A stretch of 5,230 nucleotides of DNA from a virus (lineage: Duplodnaviria > Heunggongvirae > Uroviricota > Caudoviricetes): IMG/VR virus record IMGVR_UViG_2548877011_000013; one strand, given 5' to 3'. Made by a program: the position numbers and the translations under genes. How positions within the stretch are numbered: position 1 is the first letter of the stretch; the number at the start of each line of letters is the position of its first letter. Under the pieces are notes generated by a model that saw nothing but the letters and a program-made list of their open reading frames with translations, had not been told where the DNA came from and searched no databases. Below, in pieces: positions 583 to 5,230 of the stretch.

Positions 583-804
583 ATGGCAGACATCATTGAT
601 TCAGCATCAGAAATTGAAGAATTACAGCGCAACACAGCAATAAAAATGCGCCGCCTGAACCACCAGGCTATATCTGCCACTCATTGTTGTGAGTGTGGCG
701 ATCCGATAGATGAACGAAGACGCCTGGCCGTTCAGGGTTGTCGGACTTGTGCAAGTTGCCAGGAGGATCTGGAGCTTATCAGTAAACAGAGAGGTTCGAA
801 GTGA
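583..804 (+). CDS. TraR/DksA-family C4 zinc-finger protein (lambda Orf73-like RNA-polymerase secondary-channel binder); 73 aa
   Basis: Motif C35-x2-C38-x17-C56-x2-C59 (HCCECGDP...GCRTCASC) is the canonical TraR/DksA zinc finger. Length (73 aa) and position just upstream of ea22 match lambda orf73. The stop TGA (802-804) overlaps the GTG start of the next gene. Confidence 0.8.
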   Translation: MADIIDSASEIEELQRNTAIKMRRLNHQAISATHCCECGDPIDERRRLAVQGCRTCASCQEDLELISKQRGSK

Positions 805-1571
805 GCGAAATTAATTATCAGGCACTGCGTGAAAAGGCAGAGAAAGCAACTAAAGGAAGCTACATCGTAGGGCATACATCTGTTAACCAGCACGGCAATT
901 TAACAGGAGTTTTTGTTTGCCAAAAATGGAAAGGAGAACCCGGTGGCGTGATTGCGGAATGTCATGTTAACTGCCTGATTGAATCAGATGCTCAGGCTTA
1001 TGCAAACGCTGAATTCATAGCAGAGGCTAACCCGGCTACCGTGCTGGCACTGCTGGATGAACAGGAAAGAAACCAGCAATACATCAAACGCCGCGACCAG
1101 GAGAACGAGGATATTGCTCTTACGGTAGGGAAGCTGCGTGTTGAGCTGGAAGCAGCAGAGAACAACCTTATTGATAGTGAATGCCATGTTGCTGAACTGG
1201 AAGAAGCGCTACGCGATAAGCAGGCGTTACTTGAAGCCTCAGAAAAGCGCAACGCAAAATTACAAAGCGAGAATGCATACATCCGCAACCGGTACAAAGA
1301 ACTGGACCTATTAATCGGGAAAAACATTCTTGTCATGCAGGCTGCGATTATCGAATGGCAGGCAACTGGCGACGCTAAAAGCGGACTGGCATGGATTTAT
1401 AACACACTGTTTGGCCCAGGCGAATTACCGGACGAATCTGAGAAAGATGCTCAGGCCTACTTTAATCGCAAATATGCACCGATTGACGAAAATCTCATGG
1501 AGCTTCACAAGTGGTTTTGGGAACAAAGTGAAGCCGAGCGCGCCGCTGGCATTCGCATCAAAGGAGAGTGA
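801..1571 (+). CDS. Ead/Ea22-like family protein; 256 aa with a central coiled-coil region
   Basis: GTG start at 801 with GAGAGG 6 nt upstream, overlapping the upstream stop (GTGA). The N-terminus MSEINYQALREKAEKAT and the motif EFIAEANPATVLALLDEQE match the conserved Ead/Ea22 signature as I recall it. The middle region is heptad-like and rich in E/K/R/L/A. Confidence 0.7.
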   Translation: MSEINYQALREKAEKATKGSYIVGHTSVNQHGNLTGVFVCQKWKGEPGGVIAECHVNCLIESDAQAYANAEFIAEANPATVLALLDEQERNQQYIKRRDQENEDIALTVGKLRVELEAAENNLIDSECHVAELEEALRDKQALLEASEKRNAKLQSENAYIRNRYKELDLLIGKNILVMQAAIIEWQATGDAKSGLAWIYNTLFGPGELPDESEKDAQAYFNRKYAPIDENLMELHKWFWEQSEAERAAGIRIKGE

Positions 1572-1572
1572 T

Positions 1573-2328
1573 ATGATTCACTACCACGGTGGGCCTATTA
1601 CTCCTGATACGTGCGCAATGAGAGCATGGAAAGGGCGACATGCGTTTATCAGTTTTGCGCATTCAGGCCAGATCAATCTCGCGGCTGAATACTGTCAGTC
1701 GTTCGCGCTGGACAACGGTGCATTCACCGCCTGGAAAGCAGCTGGCAAAAACAAAATCGACTGGAGCGATTACTACGAGTTTGTTGCTCGCTGGAAGAAT
1801 CACCCAGGATTCGATTTTGCCATTATCCCGGATGTTATTGATGGCGGAGAGGAGGAAAATGATGCGCTTCTGAATGAGTGGCCTCACGGAAAACTAGCTG
1901 GCGTTCCAGTGTGGCACATGAATGAAAGTGACGAGCGATTTATTCATTTGTGCAATGAGTTTCCGCGAGTGGCTATCGGTAGTTGTGGCGACTATGACGT
2001 AAAGCGCCCAACTCTTGCGGTAGCCAGAATGAAAGACCTGATTCGTCACATTGTTGATGGGCATGGTCAGCCGGTTACGAAACTACATGGATTGCGCATG
2101 TTAAATCCGCTGATATTCACAAAATTACCCTTAGCCAGCGCAGATAGTACGAACGTCGCTCGAAACATCGGTATTGATAAAGCCTGGTCTGGGGCTTATG
2201 CACCTGCAAGTAAAGAGACACGCGCAGCATTAATGGTAGAACGGATTGAGGCACACAATAGCCCTGGTTCTCTTGCGTATTGTGAACAACGCGACCGCTT
2301 TGAAATGCAATTGCAACTAGCACTTTAA
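1573..2328 (+). CDS. TGT-fold protein, DpdA-like DNA-guanine transglycosylase candidate (7-deazaguanine DNA modification); 251 aa
   Basis: ATG at 1573, 2 nt after the Ea22 stop, with AGGAG at 1562-1566. The track ORF 1330..2328 is an out-of-frame upstream extension into Ea22. Motifs align in order and spacing with E. coli Tgt: LDNGAF (D47) to DSGGFQ, FAIIPDVID (D87) to IFDEC, VAIGSCG to AVGGL, and DSTNVARNIG to DCVMPTRNARNG. The C-terminal CxCxxC...H zinc module of tRNA TGTs is absent, as in phage DpdA. The ORF call is firm; the functional call is moderate. Confidence 0.5.
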   Translation: MIHYHGGPITPDTCAMRAWKGRHAFISFAHSGQINLAAEYCQSFALDNGAFTAWKAAGKNKIDWSDYYEFVARWKNHPGFDFAIIPDVIDGGEEENDALLNEWPHGKLAGVPVWHMNESDERFIHLCNEFPRVAIGSCGDYDVKRPTLAVARMKDLIRHIVDGHGQPVTKLHGLRMLNPLIFTKLPLASADSTNVARNIGIDKAWSGAYAPASKETRAALMVERIEAHNSPGSLAYCEQRDRFEMQLQLAL

Positions 2329-2338
2329 GGACTAACAA

Positions 2339-3169
2339 ATGACCACTATTACCAAAGAACGTATTGAATTGTTCATTAAAAATCCGCTTGAAAACGGGCT
2401 TACTCGTGGCGAACAAATGGAACTGGCACGAATTGCACTGGCATCACTGGAACGCGAACTGATTCGCCACGAGCATGCCAAATGGTCTGACTCCACATTT
2501 GGCTGCGTTGGCCCCATTGGTCCACTGAAACACCTCTCAAAAGAGGCTCTGGAAGCCGCAGCCGAACCAGACGATCTCAGCGAGTGGGCTGATATGCATT
2601 TCCTGTTGTGGGATGCACAGCGCCGTGCTGGCATCAGCGATGCTGAAATTACCGCTGCTATGGAAGATAAATTGAAGATCAACATGGAGCGCCAGTGGCC
2701 TGAACCAAAAGATGGTGAGCCTCGCTTGCACATTAAAGAACCCGGCAACTCTCCGGTAATTCCGGATGGTTTATCCACGGTATGCGCTGAGGCTTATCAG
2801 GTTGTAGGAGTTATGGCAGATGCGCTTGGTGTATTCGGTGATGCAGCAGTACAGAAAGTTCTGGATAACCTGTCACAGCAAAAACTTGTTCACAGAGATG
2901 TGCTGCCGTTCTCGCTTCCGGCAACTCCGGATGGTTGGATAAGCTGTAGTGAGCGAATGCCTGAAATGGGAGAGCGACAATGCTATGTGTTAGCAGCTGA
3001 CTTTAAAAACAACTACCCACCAAACATCCCCAACACTCAGGTCGGCGTATATGGCGACTGGTTTAATGATGGCAAGCCCACTTGGGATGACGGTGATGGC
3101 GAAGACCTGTATCTCAAAGAGGTAACCCACTGGATGCAGCTACCAGAACCGCCGCAGGAGGTGAAATGA
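2339..3169 (+). CDS. Two-domain phage protein: N-terminal MazG-like dATP/dGTP pyrophosphohydrolase domain (DUF550-type) plus C-terminal DUF551; 276 aa
   Basis: AAGGA 7 nt upstream of ATG 2339. The N-terminal ~120 aa is all-alpha with acidic clusters (KHLSKEALEAAAEPDDLSEWADMHFLLWDAQRRAGISDAEI) typical of the MazG/HisE-like fold. The C-terminus has DGWISCSERMPE ... VTHWMQLPEPP, which matches the DUF551 signature. Assignment from memory. Confidence 0.65.
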   Translation: MTTITKERIELFIKNPLENGLTRGEQMELARIALASLERELIRHEHAKWSDSTFGCVGPIGPLKHLSKEALEAAAEPDDLSEWADMHFLLWDAQRRAGISDAEITAAMEDKLKINMERQWPEPKDGEPRLHIKEPGNSPVIPDGLSTVCAEAYQVVGVMADALGVFGDAAVQKVLDNLSQQKLVHRDVLPFSLPATPDGWISCSERMPEMGERQCYVLAADFKNNYPPNIPNTQVGVYGDWFNDGKPTWDDGDGEDLYLKEVTHWMQLPEPPQEVK

Positions 3170-3252
3170 TGAATTGGCCTGAAGCATTCACCGCAGTTGG
3201 AGTTGCAATAGCGGTGGCATTTATTCTGTATTCGCTTTTCCGCTGGGGATAA
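3166..3252 (+). CDS. Micro-ORF encoding a 28-aa single-TM peptide (MMNWPEAFTAVGVAIAVAFILYSLFRWG)
   Basis: The ATG at 3166 overlaps the stop of the preceding gene (aaATGA), and the ORF ends 4 nt before the next gene. It has a 19-residue hydrophobic core flanked by Trp and Arg. The preceding GGAGG at 3157-3161 could serve as its Shine-Dalgarno sequence. Below the track cutoff. Confidence 0.35.
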   Translation: MMNWPEAFTAVGVAIAVAFILYSLFRWG

Positions 3253-3256
3253 AGGA

Positions 3257-3499
3257 ATGTTCGCTCTGATTCAACGTGGTCAGATATACACGGACAGAGC
3301 CGGATACCCTGTGGTGATTACTCGCAGTACTCAGCACTCAGTGTTCTTTCGACGCATGGACGGGCGCTCCGGACGGGTACGCATTGGTGAGTTCAACAAC
3401 CTGTTCGAACATATTGACCAACAGGAGTACCGCAAAATTCTGGCGGGCACTGAGCAGGAAATGCGCCTGAAAAAATTACGCGCAATGCAACGGAGGTGA
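3257..3499 (+). CDS. DUF4222-like small phage protein; 80 aa
   Basis: ORF with GGGGA 7 nt upstream of the ATG. The sequence MFALIQRGQIYTDRAGYPVVITR...FFRRMDG resembles the DUF4222 family common in enterobacterial prophage ea regions, from memory. Confidence 0.6.
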   Translation: MFALIQRGQIYTDRAGYPVVITRSTQHSVFFRRMDGRSGRVRIGEFNNLFEHIDQQEYRKILAGTEQEMRLKKLRAMQRR

Positions 3500-3502
3500 T
3501 AC

Positions 3503-3637
3503 ATGCATACGGCTTTTGAGTTCTGGGTTCGCAAGACATTCGGCAATCGCTACGACCTGACCCGTGATGTCGACGGCTTCTACTGCCGTGAAGTTGTGAA
3601 ACGAATGTTTGACGTGTGGTTCCACTGCCGTGGATGA
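3503..3637 (+). CDS. Unannotated small ORF, 44 aa (MHTAFEFWVRKTFGNRYDLTRDVDGFYCREVVKRMFDVWFHCRG), hypothetical protein
   Basis: GGAGG (3493-3497) sits 5 nt upstream of ATG 3503, and the ORF starts 3 nt after the upstream stop. It fills an otherwise unexplained 156-nt gap in a tightly packed operon. Below the track cutoff. Confidence 0.4.
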   Translation: MHTAFEFWVRKTFGNRYDLTRDVDGFYCREVVKRMFDVWFHCRG

Positions 3638-3655: not shown

Positions 3656-3910
3656 ATGCAGACAATCATCTATCAGATAACCCCCAGCAAATGGTGTACG
3701 GAGAGAGTCCTTATTGCATCAACAGGGCTAAAGCCCGGCACCATCGAGCGGGCCAGAAGAAAGTCATGGATGCAGGGAAAAGAATACCGCCATTACGCTG
3801 TAGAAGGTGATCCTGGGCATTACAGTGAATGCCTGTACAACATCGAAGAAATTATGCGATGGATCGAAAACCAGAAACAACCAGGTGCCAAAAATGCAAG
3901 TTCCGGTTAA
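3656..3910 (+). CDS. xis: Excisionase / recombination directionality factor (Rac XisR-like); 84 aa
   Basis: Immediately upstream of the integrase on the same strand, with GAGG 5 nt before the ATG. Small and basic, with the segment ITPSKWCTERVLIASTGLKPGTIERARRK resembling a winged-helix excisionase N-terminus. Function is inferred mainly from position and size. Confidence 0.6.
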   Translation: MQTIIYQITPSKWCTERVLIASTGLKPGTIERARRKSWMQGKEYRHYAVEGDPGHYSECLYNIEEIMRWIENQKQPGAKNASSG

Positions 3911-3943: not shown

Positions 3944-5230
3944 ATGAGTAACGCATCATACCCGACAGGCGTTGAAAACCATGGAGGATCACTCCGTATA
4001 TGGTTTCACTATAATGGCAAACGTGTCAGAGAAAACCTCGGTGTTCCTGACACAGCCAAAAACCGGAAGATCGCTGGTGAACTTCGCACTTCCGTTTGTT
4101 TTGCAATCAGAATGGGGAGTTTCGACTACGCCGCGCAGTTCCCTAATTCCCCTAACCTGAAACACTTTGGTCTGGGAAAAAGAGAGATAACCGTTAAGGC
4201 ACTTTCGGAAAAATGGTTGGACCTTAAGAAAATTGAGATTTGTGCGAATGCACTTAACCGTTACCAGTCAGTAATTAAAAACATGTTACCAATGTTAGGT
4301 GAAAAAAAACTGGTTTCATCCATAACAAAAGAGGATTTACTTTTCGTAAGGAGAGATTTGTTGACCGGTTACCAAAAGCTTTCTAATGGAAAGACTTCTT
4401 CCATAAAAGGGCGCTCAGTGGTCACGGTAAACTACTATATGACAACCATAGCTGGAATGTTTCAATTTGCAACAGATAATGGTTATACCTCAGGAAACCC
4501 ATTTAACGGTCTGGCTCCCTTAAAAAAGTCCAAGGTAAAACCAGATCCTCTCACCCGTGACGAATTTATTCGTTTTATTGAGGCTTGCCGTCATCAACAA
4601 ACAAAAAACCTGTGGATTCTCGCTGTATACACGGGTATTCGTCACGGGGAGTTGGTATCGCTGGCATGGGAAGATATAGACCTTAAAGCAAGGACTATAA
4701 CCATCCGTAGAAATTATACAAAACTTGGCGAATTCACTCCACCAAAAACCGATGCAGGCACCGGAAGGACAATTCATCTGGTTCAACCAGCTATTGATGC
4801 TCTTAAAAGCCAGGCGGAAATGACCATGCTTGGAAAGCAACATTCTGTAGAGGTGAAGCAGAGGGAATATGGGAGAACTGCTGTGCATAAATGCACTTTT
4901 GTTTTTAGTCCTCAGGTAACAAAACAGCAGCAGTTGTCCGGACCTCACTACAAGGTTGACTCCATCAGGGAGTCATGGACAAGTATCTTAAAACGCGCAG
5001 GTCTGAGACACAGAAAATCGTACCAATCCAGGCATACTTATGCATGCTGGTCACTTGCCGCAGGAGCTAATCCTAGTTTTATCGCAAGCCAGATGGGCCA
5101 CACAAACGCACAAATGGTATTCAATGTTTACGGAGCATGGATGAAAGACAACAATCACGAACAGATAGAACTCCTTAACAAAAGACTATCTGAAAGTGTC
5201 CCATGTATGCCCCATAAGAAAGCAGGGTAA
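3944..5230 (+). CDS. int: Tyrosine-type site-specific integrase, lambdoid (Rac IntR / HK620-like) with N-terminal arm-binding domain; 428 aa, complete
   Basis: GGGAGG 4 nt upstream of the ATG. N-terminal arm-type domain (LRIWFHYNGKRVRENLG...FDYAAQFP). Catalytic-core motifs GIRHGEL, LAWEDIDL, SRHTYACW, AGANPSFIASQMGH and NVYGAW, the last carrying the presumed catalytic Tyr. Stop TAA at the window end. Confidence 0.92.
   Translation: MSNASYPTGVENHGGSLRIWFHYNGKRVRENLGVPDTAKNRKIAGELRTSVCFAIRMGSFDYAAQFPNSPNLKHFGLGKREITVKALSEKWLDLKKIEICANALNRYQSVIKNMLPMLGEKKLVSSITKEDLLFVRRDLLTGYQKLSNGKTSSIKGRSVVTVNYYMTTIAGMFQFATDNGYTSGNPFNGLAPLKKSKVKPDPLTRDEFIRFIEACRHQQTKNLWILAVYTGIRHGELVSLAWEDIDLKARTITIRRNYTKLGEFTPPKTDAGTGRTIHLVQPAIDALKSQAEMTMLGKQHSVEVKQREYGRTAVHKCTFVFSPQVTKQQQLSGPHYKVDSIRESWTSILKRAGLRHRKSYQSRHTYACWSLAAGANPSFIASQMGHTNAQMVFNVYGAWMKDNNHEQIELLNKRLSESVPCMPHKKAG

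Follow-up and report, generated by a model that had tools for sequence, protein, structure and literature searches.

The gene at positions 2339–3169 (+) of the window, that is, the whole 5,230-nucleotide stretch of viral DNA analyzed here (IMG/VR record IMGVR_UViG_2548877011_000013), is an intact ORF of 276 aa and is best read, with a probability of roughly 70%, as an independent accessory ('moron'-type) mosaic gene of the EaA family, which carries a probable nucleotide-cleaving domain and whose adjacency to the upstream DpdA-like gene is non-obligate. The gene is already catalogued and is an ordinary accessory gene of lambda-like E. coli prophages. NCBI already lists a protein identical at 276/276 residues (P0001, 829 contigs), named 'DUF550 domain-containing protein [Escherichia coli]'. 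When 1.84 billion cluster representatives were searched exhaustively, 4207 relatives came up with E ≤ 1e-3, 573 of them with E ≤ 1e-30. The DUF550 core takes many positions along the chain in these relatives, which are 126–461 aa long. The protein is thus public under the same domain names, its family is familiar in lambdoid and P22-like prophages, and the significance of the find itself is low.

The window represents the early-left accessory (exo-xis, 'ea') end of a lambda-like prophage, in which every gene lies on the + strand. Based on the ORF list and on Pfam and PHROG matches, it begins with a DUF1382 gene (1–192, +), followed by a PHROG 303 gene (269–484, +; ORF list and PHROG), a DksA/TraR-type zinc-finger gene (583–804, +) and an Ead/Ea22-like gene (801–1571, +). 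A DpdA-like gene of the singleton DpdA group, encoding 251 aa, was assigned to 1573–2328 (+) by its match to PHROG 887 and by its listed relatives, confirming the position directly downstream of a TGT/DpdA-like gene that had been proposed for the DUF550/DUF551 gene, itself identified from the ORF list, Pfam and the identical NCBI protein. Further downstream lie a micro-ORF for a 28-aa hydrophobic peptide (3166–3252, +; ORF list), a DUF4222 gene (3257–3499, +), a 44-aa gene (3503–3637, +; ORF list), and the excisionase (3656–3910, +) and tyrosine integrase (3944–5230, +) genes, with DUF4222, excisionase and integrase all assigned from the ORF list, Pfam and PHROG.

The nearest complete genomes matched the window with 99.3–99.4% identity across 96% of its length, and the chromosomal mlrA directly abuts the block in them. 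The gene order in the matching lambdoid prophages was N-cIII-kil-gam-bet-exo ... DksA/TraR-Ea22-DpdA-DUF550-DUF4222-xis-int-mlrA, and the closest isolated phages were BP-4795, JLK-2012, YYZ-2008, and VT1-Sakai. The host prophage, which is lambda-like and has BP-4795 and the Stx1 phages among its relatives, is integrated beside mlrA and carries the gene in its early-left exo-xis/ea region. In BP-4795-type relatives, the flanks, including the DUF551 end, are common, while DpdA and the stretch from leader to linker are swapped for other cassettes. The gene shows the properties of the EaA type, as it is flanked on the early-left strand by exo/erf on one side and xis-int on the other, has the shared MTTIT...ELARIALASLE leader and is built from cassettes; this leader is common to dozens of architectures, and the gene is annotated as eaA or Eaa in P22, BTP1, and related phages.

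PurZ- or DatZ-like genes were found neither in the window nor among the 31 genes annotated over 17 kb in the nearest relative, and a Z-genome cluster (purZ-mazZ-datZ) as the genomic context was rejected on the absence of PurZ and DatZ from both. A larger Dpd system, which was considered upon a PADLOC 'DpdH' match on the Ea22 C-terminus, was also dropped, as the same Ea22 variant is present in prophages without DpdA.

The DpdA-like ORF terminates with the TAA at 2326–2328 and the ATG of the DUF550 gene is at 2339, giving a 10-nt spacer; the gene does follow closely, as the sequence-only reading described, but the 11 nt given there is obtained by counting from the last stop base. A Shine-Dalgarno sequence AAGGA was read at 2327–2331 (+), where it overlaps the DpdA-like TAA and is placed 7 nt 5′ of the ATG. 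No promoter-like site and no convincing terminator were found between the DpdA-like and DUF550 genes, nor was a promoter-like site or credible terminator seen between the DUF550 gene and its neighbors. Expression would take place early after infection or induction, presumably on the long leftward transcript. As a separate observation, pairing of DpdA with an EaA-type gene at a fixed 10-nt spacer was seen in E. coli and Salmonella, even after replication genes (SPN3UB), with DUF550 as the middle cassette in ~1/3.

On the identical ORF of strain 13E0725, PGAP annotated a 'pseudogene' fragment plus a 245-aa CDS, and several trimmed versions of the protein are present among the entries P0044–P0053. 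These annotations would fit an artefact or a decaying fusion, in which the N-terminal 31–38 codons are the remnant of another gene and the real start is internal. However, the 245-aa model begins at a non-ATG codon, the ATT at window position 2432, that has no ribosome-binding site, whereas the full ORF has an ATG and an AAGGA at the right spacing. Moreover, the leader is intact and in frame in hundreds of genomes and forms the start of many other cassette combinations, making an internal start highly improbable. In view of the ATG, the ribosome-binding site and the many genes that begin with this leader, the split of the ORF in NCBI is probably an artefact of mosaicism.

Alignment of the relatives divided the protein into four modules, namely the leader, DUF550, an optional linker, and DUF551. 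That DUF550 and DUF551 are fused in this gene, as had been recognized from the letters, was borne out by Pfam with scores far above the cut-offs. PF04447 (DUF550, 'dATP/dGTP pyrophosphohydrolase') covered residues 42–137 (2462–2749, +; 1.3e-41) with 141.2 bits vs. a cut-off of 23 over profile positions 1–96 of 97, a domain that was also delineated by the alignment to MazZ (7ODY); PF04448 (DUF551) covered residues 199–273 (2933–3157, +; 6.4e-20) with 72.2 bits vs. a cut-off of 22 over profile positions 1–68 of 68. The leader cassette comprises residues 1–38 (MTTITKER...ELARIALASLE; 2339–2452, +), with partial PHROG matches at residues 1–45. It is common to many otherwise unrelated EaA-type proteins, in which it is followed by many different cassettes, and alternative versions of it exist; the leader segment alone made up most of the ~1780 sites in 1319 E. 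coli genomes. The linker cassette of 56 aa, residues 140–196 (2756–2926, +), is predicted to be helical and was defined by the alignment of relatives and by PHROG 28884 at residues 145–192. It is present in the 260–276-aa forms and cleanly absent from the ~220-aa forms.

The ends of DUF551, PDGWISCSERMP and HWMxLPEPP (HWMPLPEPP), are invariant, while the 40–70 residues between them are unrelated among variants, and at least 18 DUF551 core classes of <70% identity with the same ends were counted in the local data alone. Of the 120 best DUF551 proteins, only 9 had DUF550 as well. Such hypervariable cores between invariant ends, together with the many different N-terminal modules to which DUF551 is joined, would be consistent with a modular effector-adaptor engaged in an arms race, whose DUF551 tail guides the middle cassette, in anti-defence or superinfection exclusion, to a partner of host or phage origin that itself varies. 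DUF551 has also been called a portable domain in Ea22 V2 and YfdS (PMC10834534), and YfdS inhibits the initiation of replication jointly with YfdR, a protein with an HD domain (PMC4776307). However, no PADLOC defence family matched the 276-aa protein at E ≤ 0.01, and the AlphaFold2 models were of low confidence, with a mean pLDDT of 35 for the full protein (41 homologues, a shallow alignment) and a pLDDT of 47 for the DUF551 region (121 diverse DUF551 proteins). Further, the ends are identical at the nucleotide level, which argues that their 'conservation' stems mostly from recombination rather than from selection for an interface. An adaptor function of the tail is accordingly considered unlikely.

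In detail, the junction segments were nearly nucleotide-identical, including rare codons such as ATA and CGA, across at least 21 DUF551 cores, and in the last junction codon it was precisely the third base at which the variation set in. This pattern marks recombination at short linkers held in common, a classical lambdoid mosaic, and not long-term selection at the protein level. In this data set, the signature of the DUF551 family consists mostly of the two short junction motifs. The ELARIALASLE segment was likewise near-identical at the nucleotide level, and the leader acts as a recombination junction. The protein is put together from interchangeable cassettes joined at near-identical DNA segments, so that homologous recombination between prophages would keep reshuffling them.

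To the independent mosaic gene so described, the DUF550 domain would contribute the enzymatic part. Pfam at E ≤ 0.01 gave only PF04447 and PF04448 for the 276-aa protein, the canonical MazG profile (PF03819) was not matched, and NCBIfam gave no match. The sole PDB sequence match was the cyanophage S-2L MazZ (7ODY), a weak one at E = 0.81. In this weak alignment, the candidate metal ligands E69, E72, E82, and D85 align to E35, E38, E50, and D53 of MazZ, D92 to D60, F88 and L89 to I56 and L57, K111, N115, and W120 to K76, N80, and W85, and R118 to R83. In MazZ, E35, E38, E50, and D53 are the metal ligands, D60 contacts the guanine 2-amino group, I56, L57, K76, N80, and W85 belong to the pocket, and R83 is positioned at the beta-phosphate (PMC8342488). 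The acidic motifs E69-x-x-E72 and E82-x-x-D85 and the basic R118 are present as expected for the all-alpha NTP pyrophosphohydrolase superfamily, and residues 23–117 are predicted to be helical. Among 129 DUF550 cluster representatives, each from a different 50% cluster, the active-site positions were 99–100% conserved, with those of the two acidic motifs and of R118 at 100%.

From these residue patterns, we infer that the DUF550 domain is a MazG-like all-alpha pyrophosphohydrolase, which would be catalytically competent and favor guanine, possibly adenine, nucleotides. As the metal-ligand and guanine-contact residues of MazZ are identical in the protein and ~100% conserved, an activity converting dGTP/dATP to dNMP and PPi is likely; the domain would most likely cleave dGTP, possibly dATP or GTP, to the monophosphate and pyrophosphate. 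The substrate might instead be (p)ppGpp, a defence-signalling nucleotide or non-canonical dNTPs (house-cleaning), given that the substrates of MazG-superfamily enzymes vary widely and that activity on (p)ppGpp has been reported for E. coli MazG. However, the residue matching MazZ D60 and the pocket residues F88 and L89 are conserved, and the characterized DUF550 protein uses dGTP/dATP. Moreover, by the title of a study cited as reference 38 in PMC10516641, cyanophage MazG does not cleave the magic-spot nucleotides. A substrate of this other kind is therefore doubtful, and the suggestion of (p)ppGpp hydrolysis made earlier from the sequence found no support, as the positions through which the dGTP-specific MazZ contacts the metals and the 2-amino group of guanine are retained, which points to (d)GTP/dATP. 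With an active site that looks competent for (d)GTP/dATP hydrolysis, the protein would be a cheap candidate for a biochemical test.

Among characterized proteins, Acinetobacter phage SH-Ab 15497 has a DUF5664-DUF550 protein of the 'MazZ-2' type that gave PF04447 its name and is reported to turn dGTP/dATP into dNMP and PPi (PMC12884076; PMC8342488); it belongs to the same PF04447 family of MazG-like all-alpha pyrophosphohydrolases. However, it is fused to DUF5664 and is encoded in a purZ/datZ cluster of a phage with 2-aminoadenine DNA, whereas the fusion here is to DUF551 in a temperate lambdoid prophage. Similarly, the (d)GTP-specific diphosphohydrolase S-2L MazZ (7ODY) has identical metal ligands, guanine N2 Asp and beta-phosphate Arg, but the match is at E = 0.81 only, and the enzyme is of subfamily MazZ-1, has no DUF551 and is part of a Z-cluster. 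The P22 eaa and BTP1 gp22 eaA products resemble the window protein in their location in the ea/exo-xis region, a DUF550 core of 75–77% identity, the mosaic build and the MTTIT...-type leader, and BTP1 eaA likewise lies 10 nt after DpdA. Nevertheless, the leaders and C-terminal parts of these EaA proteins differ from those of the window protein, and the 321-aa BTP1 EaA has no detectable DUF551 of the window type, while the 'EaA'-labelled proteins of SPN3UB, S107, and Si3 are without DUF550. YfdS of the cryptic prophage CPS-53 and Ea22 V2 of Stx phages share the PF04448 signature as a portable domain (PMC10834534; PMC4776307), but their N-terminal modules differ from that of the window protein.

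The upstream DpdA-like protein matched PHROG 887 'queuine tRNA-ribosyltransferase' at 2e-103 and shares 93% identity with its BTP1 counterpart and 68% with that of SfI. It gave no Pfam, NCBIfam or PDB sequence match, and a 20-sequence profile searched against PDB was also blank. The label DpdA is thus a putative one, taken from PHROG 887 and the Hutinet 2019 list. In the supplement of that study, the BTP1 and SfI proteins are singleton DpdA of phages encoding 'only DpdA', the modification status of which is described as hard to predict (Hutinet et al., 2019). In Salmonella phage 7-11, a DpdA relative of 36% identity goes with only 0.02% dADG. A literature search on BTP1 and transglycosylase returned nothing relevant, and no family among the immediate neighbors of DpdA was present in more than 4 of 30–36 diverse loci as a better partner.

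The DpdA-like and DUF550 genes are adjacent in a shared operon with only the 10-nt spacer between them, and they could form a functional pair, in which the DUF550 enzyme lowers dGTP/GTP or shapes the purine pools and so favors the guanine-to-7-deazaguanine exchange in phage DNA by the DpdA-like protein. However, preQ0 is made from GTP, and a GTPase would thus work against the purpose of such a pair. DpdA, in addition, exchanges bases in finished DNA after replication, using the free base preQ0 without need of a nucleotide substrate (PMC10516641), which leaves a dGTP/GTP hydrolase without an obvious role. The same pair is found in Salmonella BTP1, and a nucleotide pyrophosphatase-like gene, the MazG/dUTPase-like CGPG_00068, likewise lies near a DpdA-family gene, DpdA3, in Cellulophaga phage phiST (PMC10516641). 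CGPG_00068, however, belongs to PF08761/PF12643, and it accompanies another DpdA subfamily in a lytic phage with full guanine replacement (PMC10516641).

The co-occurrence of the two genes was then assayed in several samples. In 80 IMG/VR loci with a DpdA of ≥90% identity, the next gene almost always started 9–11 nt downstream with an EaA-type leader, the spacer being 10 nt in most. Sixty-two distinct proteins were found at this position, and 19 of them, corresponding to 26/80 loci, contained DUF550; the remaining ones had unrelated middle cassettes, a zinc-ribbon tail, or DUF551 alone. In 80 IMG/VR loci with a DUF550 of ≥94% identity, DpdA was directly upstream in 15. DUF550 domains 100% identical to that of the window also occurred without DpdA, so the copies beside DpdA do not form a separate clade. 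In an unanchored sample, obtained with a 20-mer DNA scan in which the opening 20 bases of the leader had to match exactly, 102 slots were evaluable, of which 4 had both genes, 5 DpdA only, 16 DUF550 only, and 77 neither (Fisher OR 3.85, p = 0.07), with all 4 double-positive slots being of one 265-aa protein type. Thus, no significant association was found in the dereplicated or unanchored sample.

Among 5426 complete E. coli genomes, DpdA was present in 201, DUF550 in 500, and the DpdA-leader-DUF550 junction in 138, while the leader segment was located at ~1780 sites in 1319 genomes. DUF550 was therefore directly downstream in 138/201 DpdA genomes, compared with a background of ~26–30% of the EaA-type slots, giving a naive odds ratio of ~5 (p ~1e-27) in a heavily clonal set with just 124 nt between the two modules. 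The block of DpdA, leader, and DUF550 recurred with DUF551 tails of several kinds and with differing Ea22 variants and integrases, and was also present in Salmonella BTP1. The enrichment in E. coli is real but modest and lineage-confounded; it could reflect selection for the pair, but is equally expected from clonal over-sampling and the 124-nt gap.

In contrast, a scan of other genera with one genome per species, which gave 32 DpdA-like loci (~27 with usable flanks), including those of Erwinia, Pantoea, Yersinia, Rahnella, Proteus, and Aeromonas, found DUF550 adjacent to DpdA in 0 of the ~27 usable loci and within 6 kb in 2. The gene immediately downstream of DpdA in 30 diverse loci matched PF04447 once (BTP1), the rest being RusA, MT-A70, NinB, and unknowns. 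Among ten named phages, the adjacent pair was found in two, BTP1 and Stx1a_EH2115, while the other eight, SPN3UB, S107, Si3, AH07, RothD, PhiR5_1, SfI, and Vibrio D453, were without it. In the phage collection, DUF550 occurred in 441 records, 363 of them Klebsiella phages, and this DpdA in 108, of which 5 were Klebsiella phages. A consistent co-occurrence with DpdA across lineages, as expected of a Dpd-module partner gene, was thus not observed, the enrichment being seen in E. coli genomes only.

These results indicated that most DpdA homologues are without DUF550 and most DUF550 genes without DpdA, which together with the enzymatic considerations makes the functional pair improbable. The sequence-only reading had left the choice between a functional pair and an independent moron to a co-occurrence check. 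That check showed each gene to be mostly alone, DUF550 to be one of many cassettes following DpdA, and the two to be essentially never adjacent outside E. coli and Salmonella; it favored the independent shuffled cassette, although the modest, lineage-confounded enrichment in E. coli remains. The adjacency of DpdA and DUF550 is best explained by cassette neighborhood and linkage rather than by an obligate two-gene system, and should not be read as a system; a facultative interaction or benefit may exist in some E. coli and Salmonella prophages.

Another arrangement would make the DpdA-like gene and the following EaA-type gene, irrespective of its middle cassette, a real two-gene unit, in which the exchangeable middle cassette and the DUF551 tail tune or target the 7-deazaguanine DNA modification or the supply of its precursor. 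We regard this as quite improbable; if true, the EaA-type gene would serve a DNA hypermodification enzyme as an accessory whose cassettes are switched by recombination.

For the independent accessory gene preferred here, the physiological role would be a manipulation of nucleotide pools. Other genes of the exo-xis region are reported to affect the lysis-lysogeny decision. If the DUF550 enzyme depletes dGTP/dATP early after induction of a Stx-type prophage, it could affect the lysis-lysogeny balance or the competition of the prophage with other phages.

At its 3′-end, the DUF550 gene overlaps the micro-ORF, as its TGA (3167–3169) shares bases with the ATG of the latter (3166–3168) in an ATGA at 3166–3169, in agreement with the translational coupling that had been proposed for the two. 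The micro-ORF, although unannotated, is kept as a 27–28-aa ORF in at least 20 protein variants, with conservative hydrophobic substitutions.

In the Salmonella phage SPN3UB, the DpdA gene and an EaA-type gene (locus L302 3001-4789) lie after the replication genes, on the O/P-DnaC side, rather than in the exo-xis region, and in the Klebsiella phage RothD, DpdA and an Ead/Ea22-like gene (locus L306 3001-4222) are found at the same side. The spacer between DpdA and the next gene was still 10 nt in both phages; therefore, the junction of DpdA and its next gene moves between genome regions as one unit. Further, two more DpdA lineages, which have diverged to identities of 67-68% and 35%, were found elsewhere in the same exo-xis region (L089 522-1271, L151 1063-1812 and L122 10992-11738), either 5′ of the DksA gene or 3′ of the DUF550-DUF551 gene. 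These lineages and their positions indicate that DpdA-like genes entered the exo-xis region several times independently.

Two other neighbors of DpdA were each observed in a single case. In the Pantoea phage AH07 (L305 1682-3756), a DpdA of 88% identity is overlapped by an upstream ParB-like gene, which recalls the ParB-like protein DpdB that partners with DpdA in bacteria. In Erwinia sp. S63 (L274 5537-6753), a gene for a membrane protein of the Vut_1/YhhQ family, the family of preQ0 transporters, is located directly upstream of DpdA. The ParB-like and Vut_1/YhhQ proteins, although each comes from one locus only, are more plausible functional partners of this DpdA group than DUF550.

The Ead/Ea22-like gene at window 801-1571 (+) is directly 5′ of the DpdA-like gene, and the C-terminal part of its product (residues 145-243) matched the PADLOC 'DpdH' model PDLC02890 at 5e-35. 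Because BP-4795-type prophages without DpdA carry the same Ea22 variant as the window, the 'DpdH' name of this model may originate from prophage genes that by chance lay near dpd clusters.

The two ends of DUF551, PDGWISCSERMP (window 2933-2968) and HWMPLPEPP (window 3131-3157), recur in many loci (e.g., L003-L053 and L083-L152), and around at least 21 unrelated cores both are nearly the same nucleotide for nucleotide, down to the rare codons ATA and CGA. The Pfam DUF551 signature in these prophages is largely a pair of recombination junctions flanking a hypervariable cassette.

Database records of the DUF550-DUF551 protein vary. For the identical ORF in NZ_CP020092.1 (L001 8207-9037), the NCBI pipeline labels an N-terminal fragment as a 'pseudogene' and annotates a separate CDS of 245 aa whose start codon is not ATG; further trimmed forms of 244, 236, and 218 aa are also deposited (protein records P0044-P0053), and some nr records call the full protein 'dTDP-6-deoxy-L-hexose 3-O-methyltransferase'. 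Both the ORF split and the methyltransferase name look like annotation artifacts. A hydrophobic 28-aa micro-ORF, MMNWPEAFTAVGVAIAVAFILYSLFRWG (window 3166-3252, + strand), which overlaps the stop codon of the DUF550-DUF551 gene through ATGA, is absent from the PGAP annotation of the nearest genome. It is kept as a 27-28-aa ORF with conservative substitutions (W-P-E/D-A ... ICRWG) in at least 20 protein variants, and likely encodes a real small membrane protein.
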